DNA of 64,000 nucleotides, taken from contig OZ245015.1 in the NCBI GenBank assembly GCA_965223705.1, positions 928,001 to 992,000 of the forward strand. Reading direction: 5' to 3'. The stretch is from Myxococcota bacterium. GTDB lineage: Bacteria; Myxococcota_A; UBA9160; UBA6930. Within the stretch, counting starts at the first letter, position 1. The number at the start of each line of letters is the position of its first letter. Positions 9,685 to 17,912 of the stretch are shown one piece after another. The position numbers and the translations under genes were made by a program. Below the pieces are notes generated by a model that saw nothing but the letters and a program-made list of their open reading frames with translations, searched no databases and was not told the origin of the DNA.

Positions 9685-9804
9685 GGTGCGACCTCGAAAC
9701 ACCCCCTTCGCACCTACAAAATATCACATCGAGGGGTATCGCTTCGTGTGCGAATCTTGGGGAATGGTTCCGCTGCCGCAAAAGTTGCATCACTCAGGCG
9801 TCGC

Positions 9805-11040
9805 ATGAAATACGCCCGCCGCGGCCGGAAGATCGTGATCGCGATGGTCGGCTTGCCCGCCCGGGGCAAGACCTTCACGGCGCGAAAGCTCGTGGGCTAC
9901 TTGAGCTGGCTCGGTTACCCGACCCGATCCTTCAACGTCGGAGAAGCTCGGCGAACGAAGCTCGGACCGGGCCAATCTTCGGACTTCTTCGACCCGCAAA
10001 ACGTCGCCGGCGAGGTGCAACGGCGGGCGCTGGCCGAATCCGTTCTCGCCGACGCGTTCGACTGGTTGCGTTCGGAGGGACGCATCGCGATCTACGACGC
10101 GACCAACAGTACGCGCGAGCGGCGTGACTGGATCGCAGGGCGCTGTCGAGAAGAAGATCGCGACCTGCTCTTTGTCGAGATCTCCACGAAAGAAGAGCTC
10201 GTCGAAGACACGATCCGCGAGACGAAGATCACGTCTCCCGACTACGAGGGGCGGACCGAAGAGGAGGCCCTGGCGGATTTCCGGGAGCGCATCGCGCACT
10301 ACGAGGGCGCGTACGAACCGCTCGAGCCGGACGAAGGCGCGTGGGTGCGACTCGTCGATCGCGGGCGACAGATTGTCATCAACCGGGTGCACGGATGGAT
10401 CTTCGGAAGAATCTTGTCGTTCCTCGGGAACTTCCAAGTCGCGGCGCGCCCGGTTTGGTTGACGCGTCACGGCGAGAGTCAATTCAACCGCGAAGATCGC
10501 GTCGGTGGCGATTCCGAGCTTTCTCCGCGCGGCCAAGCGTACGCGACGGAGCTTGCCCGCCACGTGCGCAGAGCGTTTCGACCCGACGACGACTTGGACG
10601 TCTGGACCAGCACGCTCGCCCGCACGGTGCAGACCGCGGAGCCGCTCGAGGCGGATATCGGAAGGTGGCGCGCACTCGACGAGATCAACGCCGGGGTTTG
10701 CGATGGGCTGACCTACGCGGAAATTGACGAGCGCTACCCGGACGTCGCGTCGGGACGAAGCCGCGACAAGTTCGAGTTTCGCTACCCGGGTGGCGAGAGC
10801 TATGCCGACGTCGTGAGCCGTGTCGATCGCGTCATCATCGAGCTCGAGCGCTACCAGACGCCCGTCCTCGTCATTGCGCACCGTGCGGTTCTGCGGGCGC
10901 TCTACGCGTACTTCATGCAGCTCTCGCCTCGGGAGGCGCCGCACATCGATATGCCGCTCCATACCGTCATCAAGCTGACGCCGACGGCGTACGGTTGTCT
11001 GGAGGAGCGCGTCGAGCTCCCTCCGAAGATCGAGCGCTAG
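9805..11040 (+). CDS. Bifunctional 6-phosphofructo-2-kinase/fructose-2,6-bisphosphatase (PFKFB-like)
   Basis: Kinase: MVGLPARGKT, FNVGEARR, YDATNSTRERR, SPDY, DFRERIAHY. Histidine phosphatase: LTRHGES, LDEINAG, RYPGGESY, IAHRAVLR, PLHTVIKL. Confidence 0.93.
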   Translation: MKYARRGRKIVIAMVGLPARGKTFTARKLVGYLSWLGYPTRSFNVGEARRTKLGPGQSSDFFDPQNVAGEVQRRALAESVLADAFDWLRSEGRIAIYDATNSTRERRDWIAGRCREEDRDLLFVEISTKEELVEDTIRETKITSPDYEGRTEEEALADFRERIAHYEGAYEPLEPDEGAWVRLVDRGRQIVINRVHGWIFGRILSFLGNFQVAARPVWLTRHGESQFNREDRVGGDSELSPRGQAYATELARHVRRAFRPDDDLDVWTSTLARTVQTAEPLEADIGRWRALDEINAGVCDGLTYAEIDERYPDVASGRSRDKFEFRYPGGESYADVVSRVDRVIIELERYQTPVLVIAHRAVLRALYAYFMQLSPREAPHIDMPLHTVIKLTPTAYGCLEERVELPPKIER

Positions 11041-11043
11041 CGC

Positions 11044-12027
11044 GTGCGCGCCTTGCTCTCCGGAGCGCATCGGTGGCGCGTCCGACAGACTGCGCCTCTC
11101 CGGGTCCTGTGGTCCAAGGGCGTGGCGCGGTTCTGCGACGTTGCGGGGGGCGAGGGTTATTGGGCGCAACCGACCGAGGCTGTCGCGTCGCCCGAGTACG
11201 TGGAGCGACACTTCGCCGACGCCGAAGGGCTGGTCTGGTTGCGCCTCGGAACCCAGTCGCGAACCGGTCGCCCCTGCGATGTCGATCGTTTCGTCGCGCG
11301 AGTGCTGCCGAACATCGAGCACCCCTTCGCTCTGTTGACGACCGACGGCGATACCTCCGTGCCCGGCGACCTGCCGCCTCGGACCGTCGAGGCGCTGCTA
11401 GAGAACCCGCGAATGATCGCTTGGCGCACGCAAAACTACGACGGCTATCGCCATCCGAAGCTCGGTCCGTTCCCGATCGGCCTCGATCTGCACACGTTTC
11501 GAGGTTGGCGCGGGCCCTCGGGTTGGGTGCGGGCGCTCAATCGGATCTGCGCCGCACGGACGCCGCTCGAGCATGCTCCGCCGCGAGTCTTCTGCGATTT
11601 CAAGGCCACCTGGCGCTCGTCCGAGCGCGCGCGGGTCATCGATGTGCTCGACGGTTGCTCGCACGTCGATTTCCAGACCGAGCGTCTCGGGCAAATTGCG
11701 ATCTGGCGACGCTACGCCGCCTATCCGTTTGTCGTGAGCACCCACGGCAACGGACTCGATTGTCACCGCACGTGGGAGACGCTCTACCTCGGGTCGATCG
11801 TGATTACGAAGACCTCGAGTCTCGATCCGCTCTTCGAGGGGCTACCGGTCGCCGTAGTCGAGCGATGGGAGGAGGTTCGCGATCCGGCGAATCTCGCCCG
11901 CTGGAAGCGAGAGCTCGCTCCGCTCGCCGAGGCCGCGCGTGTCCGCGAACGGCTCGATCCGGCGCGTTTGGTGGGCGAGTTGCGCGCGCTTCTGGGACCT
12001 TCCGGGGATTCCCAACCTCACCTGTGA
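11044..12027 (+). CDS. Exostosin/GT47-like putative glycosyltransferase
   Basis: HPKLGPFPIGLD and FVVSTHGNGLDCHRTWETLYLGSIVI...LFEGLPV motifs. Confidence 0.6.
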   Translation: MRALLSGAHRWRVRQTAPLRVLWSKGVARFCDVAGGEGYWAQPTEAVASPEYVERHFADAEGLVWLRLGTQSRTGRPCDVDRFVARVLPNIEHPFALLTTDGDTSVPGDLPPRTVEALLENPRMIAWRTQNYDGYRHPKLGPFPIGLDLHTFRGWRGPSGWVRALNRICAARTPLEHAPPRVFCDFKATWRSSERARVIDVLDGCSHVDFQTERLGQIAIWRRYAAYPFVVSTHGNGLDCHRTWETLYLGSIVITKTSSLDPLFEGLPVAVVERWEEVRDPANLARWKRELAPLAEAARVRERLDPARLVGELRALLGPSGDSQPHL

Positions 12028-12136
12028 GGGTAACCCTCCGTTTGCGGCGACGTTCCACAGGTGTCGCGTTCCACGCTTCCAATGCTGGGCTGCGAAACGT
12101 TACGATCTCGGTCGGGTCCGAACCCGTGGAGGACGA

Positions 12137-12502
12137 ATGGCGGTGACCGATTCCTCGCAAACCTTGCCCACGGGATTCCAGCACTTAGAGTGCTGGGTCG
12201 CCGACTGGGTTCTTCCGGACACCCAAGCGCGAAGCGACCATCGACTCGCGAGTTCAATGGAAGCGATCCAAAGCTTCTACGACGCGATGCTTCCCGAGGC
12301 GCCGCGCATCTTGGAACTGCTCGCGAAAAGCAAACTCGGTGAACTCGATAGGCCCGAGGAGCGTCTGCTCGCCTTGATGCTCTCGTTCGCCGAAGTGACG
12401 CCTGCGGTCGAGTTCTACAAGCAGCCCGCGGTCGTCGACGGTTTCTCTTCGGACAAGTTTCTAGCGAATGAAATTCTCTCCGATCTAAACCCGCAGTCAT
12501 AG
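12137..12502 (+). CDS. Conserved hypothetical protein upstream of Rieske oxygenase
   Basis: GGAGG RBS; LPTGF..LE.W..DW, SSMEAIQSFYDA, SFAEVTPAVE; 121 aa. Confidence 0.75.
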   Translation: MAVTDSSQTLPTGFQHLECWVADWVLPDTQARSDHRLASSMEAIQSFYDAMLPEAPRILELLAKSKLGELDRPEERLLALMLSFAEVTPAVEFYKQPAVVDGFSSDKFLANEILSDLNPQS

Positions 12503-12520
12503 CGGACAAGGAGGCTTCCA

Positions 12521-13768
12521 ATGGCTTTTGCGAGCGAAGGGCGATTGACCTCGGCTTTCCCGAACCTAGGCACGGATCCGGTGCCTACCGATATTTACTG
12601 GAAGCCCGAGTGGTACGAGAAAGAGCTCGAAGCGATTTTCTCGCGAACCTGGCTCGCCGTGGCGAGTGGTCACGAAATCCCGTGCCCGGGCGACTTCGTC
12701 GTGAAACACATCCCGACGTTCGGCTACAAGGTCATCATCGTGCGCGGGCGCGATGGCAAAGCCCGGGCTTTTCACAACGTCTGCAGCCACCGGGGAAGCC
12801 ACGTCGAGCTTCGCGAACGAGGCAACTGCAAGGTCTTTTCGTGTCCATTCCACGGCTGGGCTTTCGATCACGAGGGCAAACTCGTCAGCGTGCCCGCCGG
12901 AAAGGATTTTTTCGATCTCGATCGACATGAGAAGGGGCTGGCGCAGATCCACGCCGACGAGTGGGCGCACCACATCTTTATCAACTTTGCCGATGAACCC
13001 GAGGAAAGTCTCGAAACCTATCTTGGAGAATTCGGCCGCGATCTCGTCGACTGGCCCGGCTGGGAACGCTGCAGCGTTTCGTGGGAGTTCAAAGCCGAAG
13101 TCGAGGTCAATTGGAAAGTGCTCCTCGACGCGTTCAACGAGATCTATCACATCCCGACGATTCACGGACGTTCGATCGCGCCGATGTTCGTGACGGAGGA
13201 CAACCCGACTGGCGAGGTGATCGGTGTGACACGCAAGGGCCCGCACCGAACCCTCTCTCTCTACGGGAATCACGCCTACCAACCCACGCCGGGCCAGGCA
13301 CTGGGCTATGGCGCGGCGCCCGGCCAACCGGTTACGAAAGCGGGCCCCGCCGACGAGAAGGATCGATTGCCGAAGGGTATCAATGAAGGTCGCCACGAAG
13401 CATGGGGTGTCGACGTGCCGACCGTCTTCCCGAACTGGGTGCCCATCGTGACTTCCGACTCTTGGTTTTCGCACCAGATTTGGCCGAAGGCGGTGAACCG
13501 ATCCGAATGGCGCATGCGTATCTACATGCCGCCCGCGGAGAACGCGGCCGAACGCTACGGCCAGGAGTACGCCAGTGTCGAGCTGCGCGATACCGTCATG
13601 GAAGACGCGAACACGTTCGAGCGCGTTCAGGATTCCCTCGACAAAGGGCTGCTTTCGCACTTCGTGTTCCGCGACCACGAAGTGTCCTGCCGGATGCAGT
13701 ACCACATTGTCAAAGAGTGGGTGGAGGCGTACGAAAAACGCCAGGCCGCCGGGGCCGCGCACGTCTAG
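12521..13768 (+). CDS. Aromatic ring-hydroxylating (Rieske) oxygenase alpha subunit
   Basis: CSHRG...CPFHGW Rieske ligands; NWK...EIYHIPTIH mononuclear Fe site; ED near C-terminus. Confidence 0.95.
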   Translation: MAFASEGRLTSAFPNLGTDPVPTDIYWKPEWYEKELEAIFSRTWLAVASGHEIPCPGDFVVKHIPTFGYKVIIVRGRDGKARAFHNVCSHRGSHVELRERGNCKVFSCPFHGWAFDHEGKLVSVPAGKDFFDLDRHEKGLAQIHADEWAHHIFINFADEPEESLETYLGEFGRDLVDWPGWERCSVSWEFKAEVEVNWKVLLDAFNEIYHIPTIHGRSIAPMFVTEDNPTGEVIGVTRKGPHRTLSLYGNHAYQPTPGQALGYGAAPGQPVTKAGPADEKDRLPKGINEGRHEAWGVDVPTVFPNWVPIVTSDSWFSHQIWPKAVNRSEWRMRIYMPPAENAAERYGQEYASVELRDTVMEDANTFERVQDSLDKGLLSHFVFRDHEVSCRMQYHIVKEWVEAYEKRQAAGAAHV

Positions 13769-13783
13769 CGCTACACTCGGTCC

Positions 13784-14092
13784 GTGCCGCCCGAACCCGT
13801 TCTCGAAGTCGCCATCCTCGACGTGCGCGGTGGTCCCACCGACGCGTTCGAAGCGGCCTTCGCGGAAGCGCAGCACATCATCGCAGCGACCTCTGGCTAT
13901 CAGCGCCACGAGCTGCGCCGCTGTGTCGAGGCCGAAGACCGGTACCTGCTTCTCGTCTGGTGGGATTCGCTCGAGAGTCACACCGAAGGCTTTCGCGGCT
14001 CCGAAGCGTATGGGCGCTGGCGCGAGCTGCTGCACCATTTTTACGAGCCGTTCCCAACCGTCGAGCACTATGTCGCGGTCAACGGACCGTAG
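13784..14092 (+). CDS. Antibiotic biosynthesis monooxygenase (ABM) family protein
   Basis: LEVAILDV, YLLLVWWDSLESH.EGFRGS, LHHFYEPFP.VEHY. Confidence 0.9.
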   Translation: MPPEPVLEVAILDVRGGPTDAFEAAFAEAQHIIAATSGYQRHELRRCVEAEDRYLLLVWWDSLESHTEGFRGSEAYGRWRELLHHFYEPFPTVEHYVAVNGP

Positions 14093-14103
14093 AGAGGAGC
14101 CCG

Positions 14104-14505
14104 ATGTATAAACTCCATAAACCCGTCTCGCAATTAGTCGAAGAAGCGCGACTCGAGATCGCGAACCACTCCGCGGAGGAAGCGAAACGCCGCGTCGATG
14201 AAGAGGGCGCGCTGCTCGTCGATGTTCGAGATATCCGAGAGCTCGACCGCGAGGGGAAGATTCCCGGCGCGTTCCATGCGCCGCGGGGGATGCTCGAGTT
14301 TTGGATCGATCCCGATTCGCCGTATTTCAAAGAAGTGTTCGCCGCCGACCGCGAGTTCATCTTTTTCTGAGCGGGTGGCGGACGGACAAGTTTGTCCGTG
14401 AAGATGCTTCAAGACATGGGAATGCCTCGCGTATCGCACATCGTCACGGGTTTCGGCGGCTGGCGCGAAGCCGGTTTTCCAGTCGAGGGCGGCAAGTCGT
14501 CGTGA
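14104..14505 (+). CDS. Rhodanese-like sulfurtransferase, probable selenoprotein (UGA 14368-14370 read as Sec89)
   Basis: LVDVRDIRE, IPGAFHAPRGMLEFWID, then FIFF-UGA-AGGGRTSLSVKMLQDMG...GFGGWREAGFPVE in frame; UGA at catalytic Cys position; hairpin follows. Confidence 0.88.
14382..14399 (+). promoter_or_regulatory. Putative bacterial SECIS hairpin
   Basis: ACGGACA-AGTT-TGTCCGT perfect 7-bp stem, GU in apical loop, starting 11 nt after the UGA. Confidence 0.75.
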
Positions 14506-14560
14506 GCGGGCGCGCCGAGGGAGTCTTGCACTGCAACTCGTGCGGTAGCAAGATGGCCCC

Positions 14561-15187
14561 ATGCCCACTTTACTCTACATCGAAGCTTCCCCTCGAAAGG
14601 AGCGTTCGCACTCGATTCGAGTCGCCGACGCCTTTCTCGACAAATACGCCGCTGCGAATCCGTCGGACACGATCGATCGGCTCGACTTGTGGTCGGCCGA
14701 CCTCCCGCGCTTTGATGGAGCCGCGCTGGACGCGAAGTACGCGATCATGCACGGGGAATCCCCGACCGAAGAGCAGCAGAGCGCTTGGGGGACGATCGAG
14801 CGCGAGTTCCGCCGCTTTGGCGATGCCGACAAATTCGTTTTCAGCGTCCCGATGTGGAACTTCGGTGTTCCCTACGTTCTGAAGCACTACATCGACGTCA
14901 TCACGCAGCCGGGCATGGCGTGGAGCGTTTCCCCTGACGGAAGCTACCAGGGTCTCGTTCAGGGCAGCGCCGTCGTGATCTACGCCAGCGGCGCCGCCTA
15001 TCACGACGGCAGCGGCTTCGAGGCCTTTGATCTGCAGAAACCCACCGTGGAGAATTGGCTCGCGTTCATCGGTATCACCGAGGTGCAGCGGATCGTGCTC
15101 GCCGGTTCTTTGGGTGATCCCGACGCCACGCGGGCGGCTGAGGCGGCTGCGGTCGCAGAAGCGGAGAAACTCGCGGCGCGCTTCTAG
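14561..15187 (+). CDS. azoR: FMN-dependent NADH-azoreductase
   Basis: IEASPR...S.S, PMWNFGVP..LKHYID, F+GIT motifs. Confidence 0.9.
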   Translation: MPTLLYIEASPRKERSHSIRVADAFLDKYAAANPSDTIDRLDLWSADLPRFDGAALDAKYAIMHGESPTEEQQSAWGTIEREFRRFGDADKFVFSVPMWNFGVPYVLKHYIDVITQPGMAWSVSPDGSYQGLVQGSAVVIYASGAAYHDGSGFEAFDLQKPTVENWLAFIGITEVQRIVLAGSLGDPDATRAAEAAAVAEAEKLAARF

Positions 15188-15206
15188 AAGCTCGGAGGTC
15201 GCGGAG

Positions 15207-16580
15207 ATGGCTGTGAAGAAGCGCATGTTCTTCAACGCGTTCCACATGAACTGCGTCGTTCACCAATCACCAGGGCTCTGGGTTCGAGAAGACGACCACA
15301 TGGCCGACTACAAGAACTTGGATTCCTGGATCGAGTTCGCGAAGCTGATCGAACGAGGGAAGTTCGACGCCGTATTCCTCGCCGATGTCGTGGGCACATA
15401 CGATGTCTACGGAGGTAGTCGCGACGCTGCGGTCCGGGGCGCTGCCCAGGTTCCGGTGAACGATCCGATGCTGCTCATCCCTCCGATGGCGGCGGTGACC
15501 GAGCACCTGGGGTTCGGCTTTACGAGCTCCGTACTGCAAGCGCATCCCATCACGTTCGCTCGGCAGATCACCACGCTCGACCACCTCACCAAGGGACGGG
15601 TGGGCTGGAACATCGTGACGTCGTATCTCGAGAGTACCGGGCGCGCGTACGGCTTGGGCGGGCTCCCCGACCACGACGTCCGCTACGAGATGGCCGACGA
15701 GTTCTGCCACCTCTGTTACCAGCTGTGGGAAGACAGTTGGGCCGATGACGCCGTCATCGTCGACCGAGAGCGAGGCATCTACGCCGACCCGGCCAAGGTT
15801 CGCGATGTTCTTCACCAAGGAGACTTCTACAAGTTCGAGGGTTGCTACATCGCAGAACCCTCTCCGCAGCGAACCCCCGTGCTGTTTCAAGCCGGCGCGT
15901 CTGAACGCGGTGCGAAGTTTGCCGGCGACCACGCGGAATGCATCTTCGTCATCGGCGCAACGCCTGAAATCAGCGGCAACTATGTCAAGAACGTGCGTGC
16001 GCAAATGGCGCAGCGTGGGCGCAAGCCCGAGGATGTCCTGGGCTTTGCGTACATGAAGGTGATCACCGGAGGCACGGAAGAGGAGGCGCTCAGACTCCGC
16101 AACGAATACCTCGAGCAAATCGACTACGACGGAGCGATGGCCCTCATGGGTGGTTGGGCCGGCGTCGATTTGAGCTCTCTCGATCCCGACCAGCCGGTGG
16201 AATACATCGAGACCAACGCCGTGCGGACCATGCTGCACAGCTTCACCCAAGCGGATCCCAACCGAGAATGGACCGTCCGCGACATCACCCGCTACATCGG
16301 CTTGGGCGGCGCAGGCCCCGTACTCGTGGGTGCGCCCGAACAGATTGCCGACCAGCTCGAGGATTGGATCGACGCGGGCGTCGATGGTTTCAACCTGTCG
16401 TACGCCACCCTCCCGGGAAGTTTCGAAGACTTCATCGACGGCGTCGTGCCTGTGCTTCAGCGCCGCGGCCGCATGCAAACGGAGTACGCCGAAGGCACTC
16501 TTCGCGAAAAACTCTTCCCGGGTCGTGGCGCGCGCATCGCGCGTCCACACCCGGCGGCGACGTGTCGGCGACCTTGGTAA
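15207..16580 (+). CDS. NtaA/DmoA/DszA-family FMNH2-dependent monooxygenase (LLM class)
   Basis: ERGKFDAVFLAD, TLDHLTKGRVGWNIVTS, PSPQRTPVLFQAGAS, VVPVLQRRG, GTLREKL. Confidence 0.92.
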   Translation: MAVKKRMFFNAFHMNCVVHQSPGLWVREDDHMADYKNLDSWIEFAKLIERGKFDAVFLADVVGTYDVYGGSRDAAVRGAAQVPVNDPMLLIPPMAAVTEHLGFGFTSSVLQAHPITFARQITTLDHLTKGRVGWNIVTSYLESTGRAYGLGGLPDHDVRYEMADEFCHLCYQLWEDSWADDAVIVDRERGIYADPAKVRDVLHQGDFYKFEGCYIAEPSPQRTPVLFQAGASERGAKFAGDHAECIFVIGATPEISGNYVKNVRAQMAQRGRKPEDVLGFAYMKVITGGTEEEALRLRNEYLEQIDYDGAMALMGGWAGVDLSSLDPDQPVEYIETNAVRTMLHSFTQADPNREWTVRDITRYIGLGGAGPVLVGAPEQIADQLEDWIDAGVDGFNLSYATLPGSFEDFIDGVVPVLQRRGRMQTEYAEGTLREKLFPGRGARIARPHPAATCRRPW

Positions 16581-16614
16581 GCGCACTCGCCCAGCACCGG
16601 TTGGGCGAGCCCCC

Positions 16615-17175
16615 TTGACCCAGTTCGAGTACATCACCGTCCTACAGTCGATCGTCGTCGCGTTCGCACTCTCCGAGGTGTTATCGACTTGGGGCGGCCT
16701 CGTGAGAAACCGCGCCCGAGTCCGGATGTACTGGGTCTACATCGGCTGGAGCGGCCTCGTGTTGCTGGGCCTGATTCAGATTTGGTGGGGTACGTGGCAG
16801 TACCGCGAGGTCGGGTTTCCGAGCCTCCTATCGCTGCTTCTTCTGCTCGCACCGCCTCTGACGCTCGCGTTTGCCGCCTTTGTCTTCCAGCCGAACATGG
16901 CAGGGGACGAACCGATCGATCTGGTGGCCCAATACGAGGCCAATCGCAAATGGTTCTTCCCGCTGATGGCGCTCGTCCTCGCCGAACTGAGCGTTGTGGA
17001 TTGGACGGTTGCCCGGCAGCCGATACTTCACGCCGAGAACCTCGTGCGCTTGTTGGGTGTTTTGCTGAGCCTCTCTCTCGCAATCGTCGAGAACCGTCGC
17101 GTTCACCAACTCGCGCTGGCGGGCTCCTTTCTTCTCTTCTTGGTATTCGTGAAAGTGGCCTACCAGGCGTCGTAG
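16615..17175 (+). CDS. Hypothetical integral membrane protein
   Basis: TTG start, FEYITVL.SIV N-terminus, about 5-6 hydrophobic segments. Confidence 0.75.
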   Translation: MTQFEYITVLQSIVVAFALSEVLSTWGGLVRNRARVRMYWVYIGWSGLVLLGLIQIWWGTWQYREVGFPSLLSLLLLLAPPLTLAFAAFVFQPNMAGDEPIDLVAQYEANRKWFFPLMALVLAELSVVDWTVARQPILHAENLVRLLGVLLSLSLAIVENRRVHQLALAGSFLLFLVFVKVAYQAS

Positions 17176-17912
17176 GCGCCCTGCGTTGCCGAACCGAGGC
17201 GTGCGCGAAAGAACGCGAGCACCCGGTCCCGAGCGGCGACAGTGGGATGACCCGCTTCGTCGCGAAAGTCGATGGTGAGGACGCTGTGCGGGCCGGTCGG
17301 GTTCCGGCTGTCGCGAACCTGCTTCGAATCGATTTCGATTCCCTCGAAACCGGTGCCGAGCTCTCGGTGGAGGCGCTGAAAGCGCTCAGGAGGCGAGGTT
17401 GAGTCTTCGCTAAAGCGAAGGCCCAACACCTTGCAGCCCGAAGCGACGCGCTCCTTGACTGTCGCGAGTTCCGCGTCGGAGATGTGGAGCCCGGCGCGGC
17501 GCGCTTTGCCGACGGGAAGCGGGAGCGAGGGTTGGCATAGGACGGGCGCCAAGAGAGCGGGTTCCATCATCAGGGCGAGCGCAAAGTTCCCGGTGAGACA
17601 CATCCCGAGGGCGCCGATGCCCTCGCCTCCGCATTCGTCGTGGATGTGGCGAGCGAGGGCGCGAAGCCAGTCGCAGATCGGGCTCGACCGGTGCGCGGCG
17701 AGGACGCGGAACTCGCGGCTGATGCATGCGCGAGCGAGCTGGCCGAACGCGTAACCGTTCGAGACCGGTTTCCCGGTCGTCCCGAAAAGCACGGGTAGGA
17801 AAACGCAGAAACCCGCGTCGACCACTTCGTTCGCGAAGCGAATGACGTCGGGGTGCACTCCGGGTACTTCGTGCATGATGAGCACGCCCGATCCCTCGCC
17901 GCGGCGGAACAC
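17160..17912 (-). CDS. Dienelactone hydrolase family protein (true start possibly upstream, near 17978)
   Basis: MHEVPG, GMCLTGNFAL (nucleophile Cys), LRFSED, HSVLT. Confidence 0.88.
   Translation of the reverse strand: MFRRGEGSGVLIMHEVPGVHPDVIRFANEVVDAGFCVFLPVLFGTTGKPVSNGYAFGQLARACISREFRVLAAHRSSPICDWLRALARHIHDECGGEGIGALGMCLTGNFALALMMEPALLAPVLCQPSLPLPVGKARRAGLHISDAELATVKERVASGCKVLGLRFSEDSTSPPERFQRLHRELGTGFEGIEIDSKQVRDSRNPTGPHSVLTIDFRDEAGHPTVAARDRVLAFFRARLGSATQGAYDAW

Follow-up and report, generated by a model that had tools for sequence, protein, structure and literature searches.

A predicted selenocysteine-containing rhodanese of the RPA3614 subfamily in a Myxococcota bacterium, with an in-frame UGA at the catalytic cysteine position and a SECIS-like hairpin

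In this study, we asked whether a rhodanese gene that appears to stop just before completing its active site in a Myxococcota bacterium (assembly GCA_965223705.1, contig OZ245015.1) is truncated or encodes a complete selenoprotein. The gene lies in a stretch of 64,000 nucleotides (positions 928,001 to 992,000 of the contig, forward strand), which we call the window and to which the coordinates below refer. The plain ORF list ends the rhodanese frame at 14370, and protein databases store 88-aa products for this gene and for one 88%-identical relative (entries P0008 and P0068), so standard pipelines do call the gene truncated, as the earlier note had anticipated. That note read the locus as a hidden selenoprotein with UGA at the catalytic Cys and a SECIS hairpin, and our analysis supports this reading. 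Codon 89 is TGA (14368–14370), and the sequence confirms that the frame remains open for 44 codons beyond it, up to a final TGA at 14503–14505. The features discussed here are listed below.

14095..14099, + strand: AGGAG, resembling a ribosome-binding site, 4 nt before the ATG at 14104 (read from the sequence; putative function)
14104..14505, + strand: single-domain rhodanese gene of the RPA3614/2HHG subfamily, 133 aa, predicted Sec at residue 89 (profile, structure, and alignment matches)
14368..14370, + strand: UGA codon within the frame where homologues have the catalytic Cys, interpreted as selenocysteine (U89) (homologue alignment; selABCD in the genome)
14368..14385, + strand: codons of the six-residue active-site loop U-A-G-G-G-R, U89 to R94 (alignment; loop definition from PMC8533005)
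14371..14502, + strand: 44 post-UGA codons under protein-level purifying selection, comprising the active-site loop, a helix, and the GFGGW motif (pN/pS)
14382..14399, + strand: upper stem-loop of a candidate bacterial SECIS, with a 7-bp stem and an AGUU loop at +19 to +22, overlapping codons G93-R94-T95-S96-L97-S98-V99 (fold, conservation, and pairing)

The read-through product contains one complete rhodanese domain with the single-domain architecture of the COG0607 type, as indicated by profile and fold searches. Residues 23–122 matched the Pfam Rhodanese family (PF00581) over model positions 1–101 of 102 with 62.1 bits (cut-off 22.2); the part after the UGA forms the rhodanese tail that the earlier note had described. 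The nearest solved relative is RPA3614 from Rhodopseudomonas palustris (PDB 2HHG; sequence E 2.4e-37, profile E 5.9e-58), which is 45% identical and shares the same loop and the RGMLEFW motif but has Cys at the catalytic position. An AlphaFold model built from a 47-sequence alignment (pLDDT 95.3) superposed on 2HHG with a TM-score of 0.90 and an rmsd of 1.5 Å. In the alignment with 2HHG, codon 89 falls on the C of its FYCAGGLR loop, which places the UGA at the active-site Cys as proposed, and C89 and R94 are invariant in the 47-protein alignment. A literature search for RPA3614, 2HHG, and cd01447 returned no relevant paper. The matches to profiles of solved structures include the polysulfide-sulfur transferase Sud, GlpE, YgaP, and TSTD1, together with a single weak match to the dual-specificity phosphatase 1t3k (E 1.7e-6). 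Sud from Wolinella succinogenes (PDB 1QXN) was the fourth profile match (E 5e-16) and aligned over nearly the whole length, with approximately 24% identity and a TM-score of 0.66 to the source protein. Sud, GlpE, YgaP, TSTD1, and RDL2 are likewise single-domain proteins with a six-residue loop, but they are Cys enzymes. Sud of W. succinogenes is periplasmic; for the source protein, the absence of a signal peptide, judged by eye only, suggests a cytoplasmic location. The six-residue rhodanese loop starts at Cys and ends in Arg, Thr, or Ser, and the loop-final Arg is required for thiosulfate turnover in RDL2 and DUF442, which follow a ping-pong mechanism via an enzyme-sulfur adduct (PMC8533005). 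The loop U-A-G-G-G-R agrees with this six-residue sulfurtransferase type, with Sec replacing Cys, and the UxxG motif is present at the catalytic position as UAGG.

Homologues were compared at the codon corresponding to the in-frame UGA. Among 110 loci from relatives and a genome collection, this codon was TGA in 18 and TGC or TGT in 92, with no other codon at the site. An extended set found by protein similarity, which additionally draws on samples from one actinobacterial order, from the SAR324 phylum, and from the phylum of the source genome, comprises 24 distinct TGA genes and 127 distinct Cys genes, and the TGA column is thus occupied by Cys in 127 distinct genes. The TGA homologues share approximately 50–78% identity and are distributed over several phyla, and the nearest relatives retain both the TGA and the hairpin. 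AGTT is present at +19 to +22 in 23 of the 24 TGA genes compared with 0 of the 127 Cys genes, and 22 of the former have a stem of 5 bp or longer. A metagenome search with a pattern that allowed TGA, TGC, or TGT before the hairpin retrieved 66 loci, of which 66 have TGA and all are rhodaneses, with 62–89% identity. The named carriers of the TGA include many Acidimicrobiales, SAR324 bacteria, one Spirochaetales genome, and gammaproteobacterial and Chthoniobacterales bins; the latter two kinds of bins stem from a single sample series and may have been misbinned. A further TGA copy at the active site was found neither among 30 loci from 60 relatives nor in the 14 additional genomes with a match among 300 genomes of the phylum. 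Two genomes first flagged as having TGA (G086 and G117) have Cys at the active site.

The pattern of substitutions differs along the gene. Between the 22 similarity-found TGA genes and the source gene, pS (uncorrected proportions) was 0.60 before the UGA, 0.032 for codons +5 to +9, and 0.71 after them, while it was 0.58 for the same codons +5 to +9 in Cys genes. The frozen hairpin codons ACA, AGT, and TTG are rare in the genome, accounting for 6%, 7%, and 14% of their residue, respectively. In the same comparison of 22 genes with the source gene, pN/pS was 0.26 for codons +11 to +35 and 0.33 before the UGA, and the post-UGA frame was open for 42–67 codons in 89 of the 89 loci that reach a stop. 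Given the similar pN/pS on both sides and the open frame, the downstream part is a maintained coding sequence. Two assembled runs, possibly the genome's own source runs, span the rhodanese stretch with 0 and 1 differences (the latter at 13932), and codon 89 showed no base difference among the assembled contigs listed. A base error is unlikely because independent homologues share the TGA and the two runs differ so little; the homologues weigh more than the reads.

The hairpin consists of the stem strands ACGGACA (14382–14388) and TGTCCGT (14393–14399) around the loop AGUU (14389–14392). The perfect stem, its loop, and its start 11 nt past the UGA are all as described in the earlier note. A spacing of 11 nt from UGA to stem is that of the E. 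coli fdhF SECIS. The local fold over 28 nt had an energy of -10.7 kcal/mol and a z-score of -3.2, with 1 of 200 shuffles as stable, while the z-score was -2.05 over 53 nt (7 of 200 shuffles) and +0.75 over 93 nt (150 of 200). In this genome (65% GC), 6,068 of 92,969 TGA triplets (6.5%) are followed at 16–30 nt by a stem of at least 7 bp that carries a G-start loop, and 19 of the 92,969 by a hairpin in the same exact register. With z +0.75 over 93 nt and this 6.5% background, stability is not discriminating, and we rejected it as proof in itself. The case for a SECIS beyond chance is made by the conservation of the hairpin across genomes. In 23 aligned TGA genes (one divergent locus, L228, left out), 90.7% of the stem cells were paired compared with 14–44% in slid controls. 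Stem pair 19/28 is A-U in 17 of the 23 genes and U-A in 6. This switch sits in related genes and alters amino acids; it may represent one or two events only and gives modest covariation evidence. In 167 of 500 shuffles, at least as many pairs showed change on both sides as in the real alignment. The bacterial SECIS model specifies a loop of 3–9 nt, a stem of 4–16 bp, G in the first two loop positions, a UGA-to-loop distance of 16–37 nt, and an energy of -7.5 kcal/mol or lower (PMC13188914). The rhodanese hairpin lies within every one of these limits, with a loop of 4, a stem of 7, a GU that starts at loop position 2, a spacing of 18, and an energy range of -10.7 to -16.5 kcal/mol. Rfam covariance models gave 0 matches at E values up to 1 in window 13000–16000; the coverage of bacterial SECIS by Rfam is described as poor (10.64898/2026.04.03.716425).

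The genome encodes the full machinery whose presence the earlier note had made a check on its reading. The genes selA (C1:274933), selB (C1:25684), and selD (C1:22501) all scored above curated cut-offs, and tRNA-Sec (selC, C1:2761395) was found by both Rfam and ARAGORN. The rhodanese gene is located far from all four. Of the other genomes tested, all 22 that carry the TGA form and 5 of 12 with Cys forms only have a selA gene above the cut-off; these are descriptive counts from kin genomes. A tRNA-Sec was present in 15 of 16 TGA genomes tested. A strict coding-potential scan of the source genome yielded 36 read-through candidates; it missed the rhodanese gene and is too strict to count the selenoproteome. 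Ten candidates picked by eye from the 36 all match known selenoprotein families with U at the redox motif (10/10), and most of them score under the NCBIfam equivalog cut-offs. They comprise four peroxiredoxin-like proteins, three AhpD/CMD-like proteins, two PrdB-like proteins, and one WAxxUGC redoxin, and their positions are as follows.

G000 (source genome), C1: ten in-frame TGA genes (L246-L254) at 2392870, 3203801, 3205240, 3316785, 4048922, 2803729, 1293633, 2493300, 3213240, and 2492127

Some features of the machinery genes themselves are unusual. The selD gene (G000:C1:22501-23403, L010) lies inside a 736-codon open frame, approximately twice the usual length, which is probably a fusion, with selB approximately 2 kb downstream. 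The selB genes of G064 (C2:1125195-1126274) and G073 (C162:1076-2137) match only the first 340–345 of 581 model positions, in a long frame that adjoins selA, and their SECIS-binding end may be divergent. At G000:C1:4419161-4419253 (-), ARAGORN also reported a tRNA-like sequence whose four-base anticodon, ttca, is unassigned; this call is probably spurious.

Among the points that the earlier note had named as able to overturn its reading, the Sec machinery and the relatives are clearly favourable, and base error is answered mainly by the homologues. We conclude that the UGA at 14368–14370 is almost certainly recoded as Sec, guided by the hairpin. Insertion of Sec through SelB and a SECIS is an established pathway (PMC13188914), and we infer that it operates on the rhodanese gene. 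SelB carrying Sec-tRNA would bind the AGUU loop at its GU, 18 nt past the UGA, leading to Sec at codon 89 and a 133-aa protein, and failed recoding would leave an 88-aa fragment without the catalytic residue. R94 would then hold a sulfane-sulfur donor, which may be thiosulfate, polysulfide, or the persulfide of a small thiol, for attack by the U89 selenolate in the U-A-G-G-G-R loop. An enzyme Se-S intermediate would form, and the sulfur would be passed to a thiol, sulfite, or cyanide acceptor. This Se-S cycle is proposed because Cys rhodaneses use an enzyme-sulfur adduct cycle. A selenol ionises more readily than a thiol. By analogy with the Cys enzymes, sulfur transfer is the probable activity of the Sec-rhodanese, and its likely role would be reactive-sulfur handling in a selenoprotein-rich marine or sediment bacterium.

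We consider it unlikely that the inserted Sec serves a redox or selenium-handling function instead, in which the protein would reduce persulfides, polysulfides, or selenite adducts, or carry selenium towards SelD. The richness of the genome in Sec peroxiredoxins and AhpD-like and PrdB-like proteins is compatible with such a function, as are residues T95 and S96 after the loop, which differ from the Cys family, and the selenium binding by rhodanese described in the literature (PMC9369223). However, the gene is distant from selA, selB, selC, and selD, the fold and R94 are unchanged, and the differences in the loop flank are accounted for by the overlapping hairpin. Furthermore, no sel or redox family occurs among the annotated recurrent neighbours. 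The commonest neighbour families of the TGA loci are SDR (10 of 91), luciferase-like monooxygenase (7), and P450 (6), which are large families in these genomes. With 26 cluster representatives annotated, no family was found beside more than 10 of the 91 loci, no conserved operon was found around them, and none of the neighbours indicates a pathway.

It is very unlikely that the subfamily, with Sec inserted, consists of Cdc25-like phosphatases or arsenate reductases. The title of the 2HHG entry calls RPA3614 a possible tyrosine phosphatase, and the weak 1t3k match points in the same direction, whereas the C/U-x4-R loop is of the six-residue sulfurtransferase type. Cdc25-type enzymes use C-x5-R. 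The surroundings of the Cys genes also argue against a phosphatase: at 21 loci (L109:3378-4469 and 20 others), most of them in Bradyrhizobium and its relatives, a gene for a two-domain rhodanese directly adjoins the Cys gene.

A true stop at the TGA, through a nonsense mutation, a sequencing error, or a genuine 88-aa product, is highly improbable. Gene callers do yield an 88-aa protein, TGA triplets in this genome are often followed by hairpins of similar size, and an intact Cys paralogue (C1:2968829-2969194) would make loss tolerable. However, the same TGA recurs across several phyla in 24 distinct genes, as well as in 66 metagenome loci, the frame beyond it is open in 89/89 loci with a pN/pS of 0.26 after the hairpin, and selA is present in 22/22 other carriers tested. 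The genome-wide reading of TGA as Trp or Gly (genetic code 4 or 25), under which the frame would equally be open as under any TGA reassignment, can be dismissed, since TGA 14503–14505 terminates the rhodanese gene itself, tRNA-Sec is the only UCA-anticodon tRNA called, and homologues have Cys and never Trp or Gly at this column.

The predicted Sec-rhodanese belongs to a broad class, the COG0607 Sec-rhodaneses, that has already been predicted, and its subfamily is absent from the reference sequences compared. The class itself will be no surprise to a specialist. The Global Ocean Sampling (GOS) survey lists six Sec-rhodaneses, in agreement with the remark of the earlier note that such proteins had been predicted from marine metagenomes (PMC2398784). 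These six reads ('Sulfurtransferase COG0607', supplement 3) are likewise single-domain, marine, and predicted only, with U-x-x-G-x-R, and the COG0607 label of the survey does include stand-alone domains; as compared by eye and by motif search, however, they lack the signature of the RPA3614 subfamily. The motifs GGRTSLS, GRSSLT, RGMLEFW, UAGGG, and UASGG had 0 matches in four GOS supplements. A 2026 review describes five Sec-rhodanese forms, all predicted and none verified (PMC13188914), and literature searches of titles and abstract starts surfaced no biochemical study of any Sec-rhodanese. Form 2 (COG0607 form 1, MBM9537886.1; PMC13188914 Table 1 and deep-Sep Table S1) likewise has a U-A-x-G-G-R loop and UxxG. 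However, its reference protein has approximately 280 aa and a long C-terminal extension without RGMLEFW, while the source protein is a stand-alone 133-aa domain and the frame closes 42–67 codons after the UGA in all 89 complete loci. Forms 1, 3, 4, and 5 (WP_010941598.1, NF041203 LYCAU, MCY3690685.1, and TsoB NF045694) also combine the rhodanese fold with a Sec residue located within the loop or next to it. Form 1 is multi-domain with U five residues past the loop Cys, and form 4 is of the two-domain SseA type, whereas the source protein has one domain and 133 aa. Form 3 has a C-x-U motif and form 5 a UxxxxU motif, and the source protein scored 30.3 bits against the form 3 model (cut-off 115) and 20.5 bits against the form 5 model (cut-off 805). 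The reference sequences of forms 1–4 given in the deep-Sep supplement (PMC12013277) thus differ in architecture or Sec position. A word search of the BSepDB supplement (PMC13326102) found no rhodanese entry; the online database may hold members.

Sec and Cys members of the subfamily differ just after the loop. Cys genes mostly have R-S-A-L-A, while Sec genes have R-T-S-L-S or R-S-S-L-T; the source protein has T95 and S96, whereas the Cys family has S95 conserved at 90% or more and a consensus of A96. We infer that the hairpin rewrote the residues that follow the active-site loop. Phylogenetic analyses comprised a FastTree tree of 202 rows and a quick IQ-TREE tree of 78 hand-chosen rows, over 112–114 columns only. 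When the loop columns were left out, 78 of the 79 Sec rows grouped in a single starred branch together with Cys rows, and Sec rows alone as a clade were rejected (p-AU 1e-5). At three places inside the Sec branch are full-length database proteins that combine C with a Sec-type imprint, RTSLS or RSSLT (P0002/P0122, P0003/P0004, and P0033/P0036). Judged from these protein sequences, all six are probable Sec-to-Cys returns; no DNA match for them was found among 88 genomes. A TGA locus from the SAR324 phylum (L228:1747-1790, genome G344, 50% identity) has the Cys-type RSALA and an 8-bp hairpin with a GGC loop, which is not the minimum-energy fold over 44 nt. Its genome contains selA and selB, and the gene is placed among Cys genes in both trees, although joining the main Sec branch was not rejected by the AU test (p 0.40). 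This locus may represent a second, separate Sec gain.

A tree that joins the source gene to four Cys genes from its family was rejected (p-AU 0.023, with the group chosen after seeing the tree). Therefore, the gene was likely acquired by horizontal transfer. The two trees place it differently within the Sec branch. The Cys paralogue in the same genome (L255:3024-3428) is 57% identical to the Sec-rhodanese, and such Sec/Cys pairs are also present in G064 and G136. The neighbours of the Cys paralogue are ureidoglycolate-lyase-like, amidohydrolase, luciferase-like, and CoA-transferase III genes. We regard as evenly poised the fuller reading of these data as an uncatalogued Sec branch of the RPA3614 subfamily with several Cys/Sec switches, namely one widespread Sec lineage in which the SECIS changed the loop flank from RSALA to either RTSLS or RSSLT, three or more reversions to Cys in which the imprint persists, and a separate gain in SAR324 with a different hairpin. 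If this is true, the branch would be a compact natural system for examining what selenium adds to sulfur transfer and would also show the cost of an in-frame SECIS to the protein that it overlaps; its assets are the solved structure of a Cys member and genomes that each contain a Sec/Cys paralogue pair.

The recognition of this gene corrects a systematic annotation error, by which an 88-aa fragment without the active site is recorded in the source genome and at least one relative. The predicted Sec-rhodaneses also gain a branch of approximately 79 distinct proteins, whose sources include Acidimicrobiia, SAR324, Spirochaetales, and further bacteria of marine or sediment origin. With a small soluble protein and a Cys counterpart whose structure is solved, the effect of a selenolate on sulfane-sulfur chemistry could be put to an easy first test.

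The TGA loci and the window contain further points of interest. One Acidimicrobiales contig carries two Sec-rhodanese copies approximately 4.4 kb apart (L056 and L059), both with TGA and hairpin. In the window, the rhodanese gene is part of a same-strand run (11939–17175, +) that consists of a 187-aa unannotated ORF, genes for a Rieske oxygenase alpha subunit and an ABM protein upstream of it, and genes for an azoreductase-like flavodoxin, an NtaA/DmoA-family monooxygenase, and a membrane protein downstream; this arrangement is not kept around the homologues. A scan of 11900–17300 gave 0 promoters and 2 terminator-like sites, compared with 5.1 expected. Upstream of this run, window 9748–11040 (+) encodes a bifunctional 6-phosphofructo-2-kinase/fructose-2,6-bisphosphatase (PF01591 and PF00300), an enzyme best known from eukaryotes.
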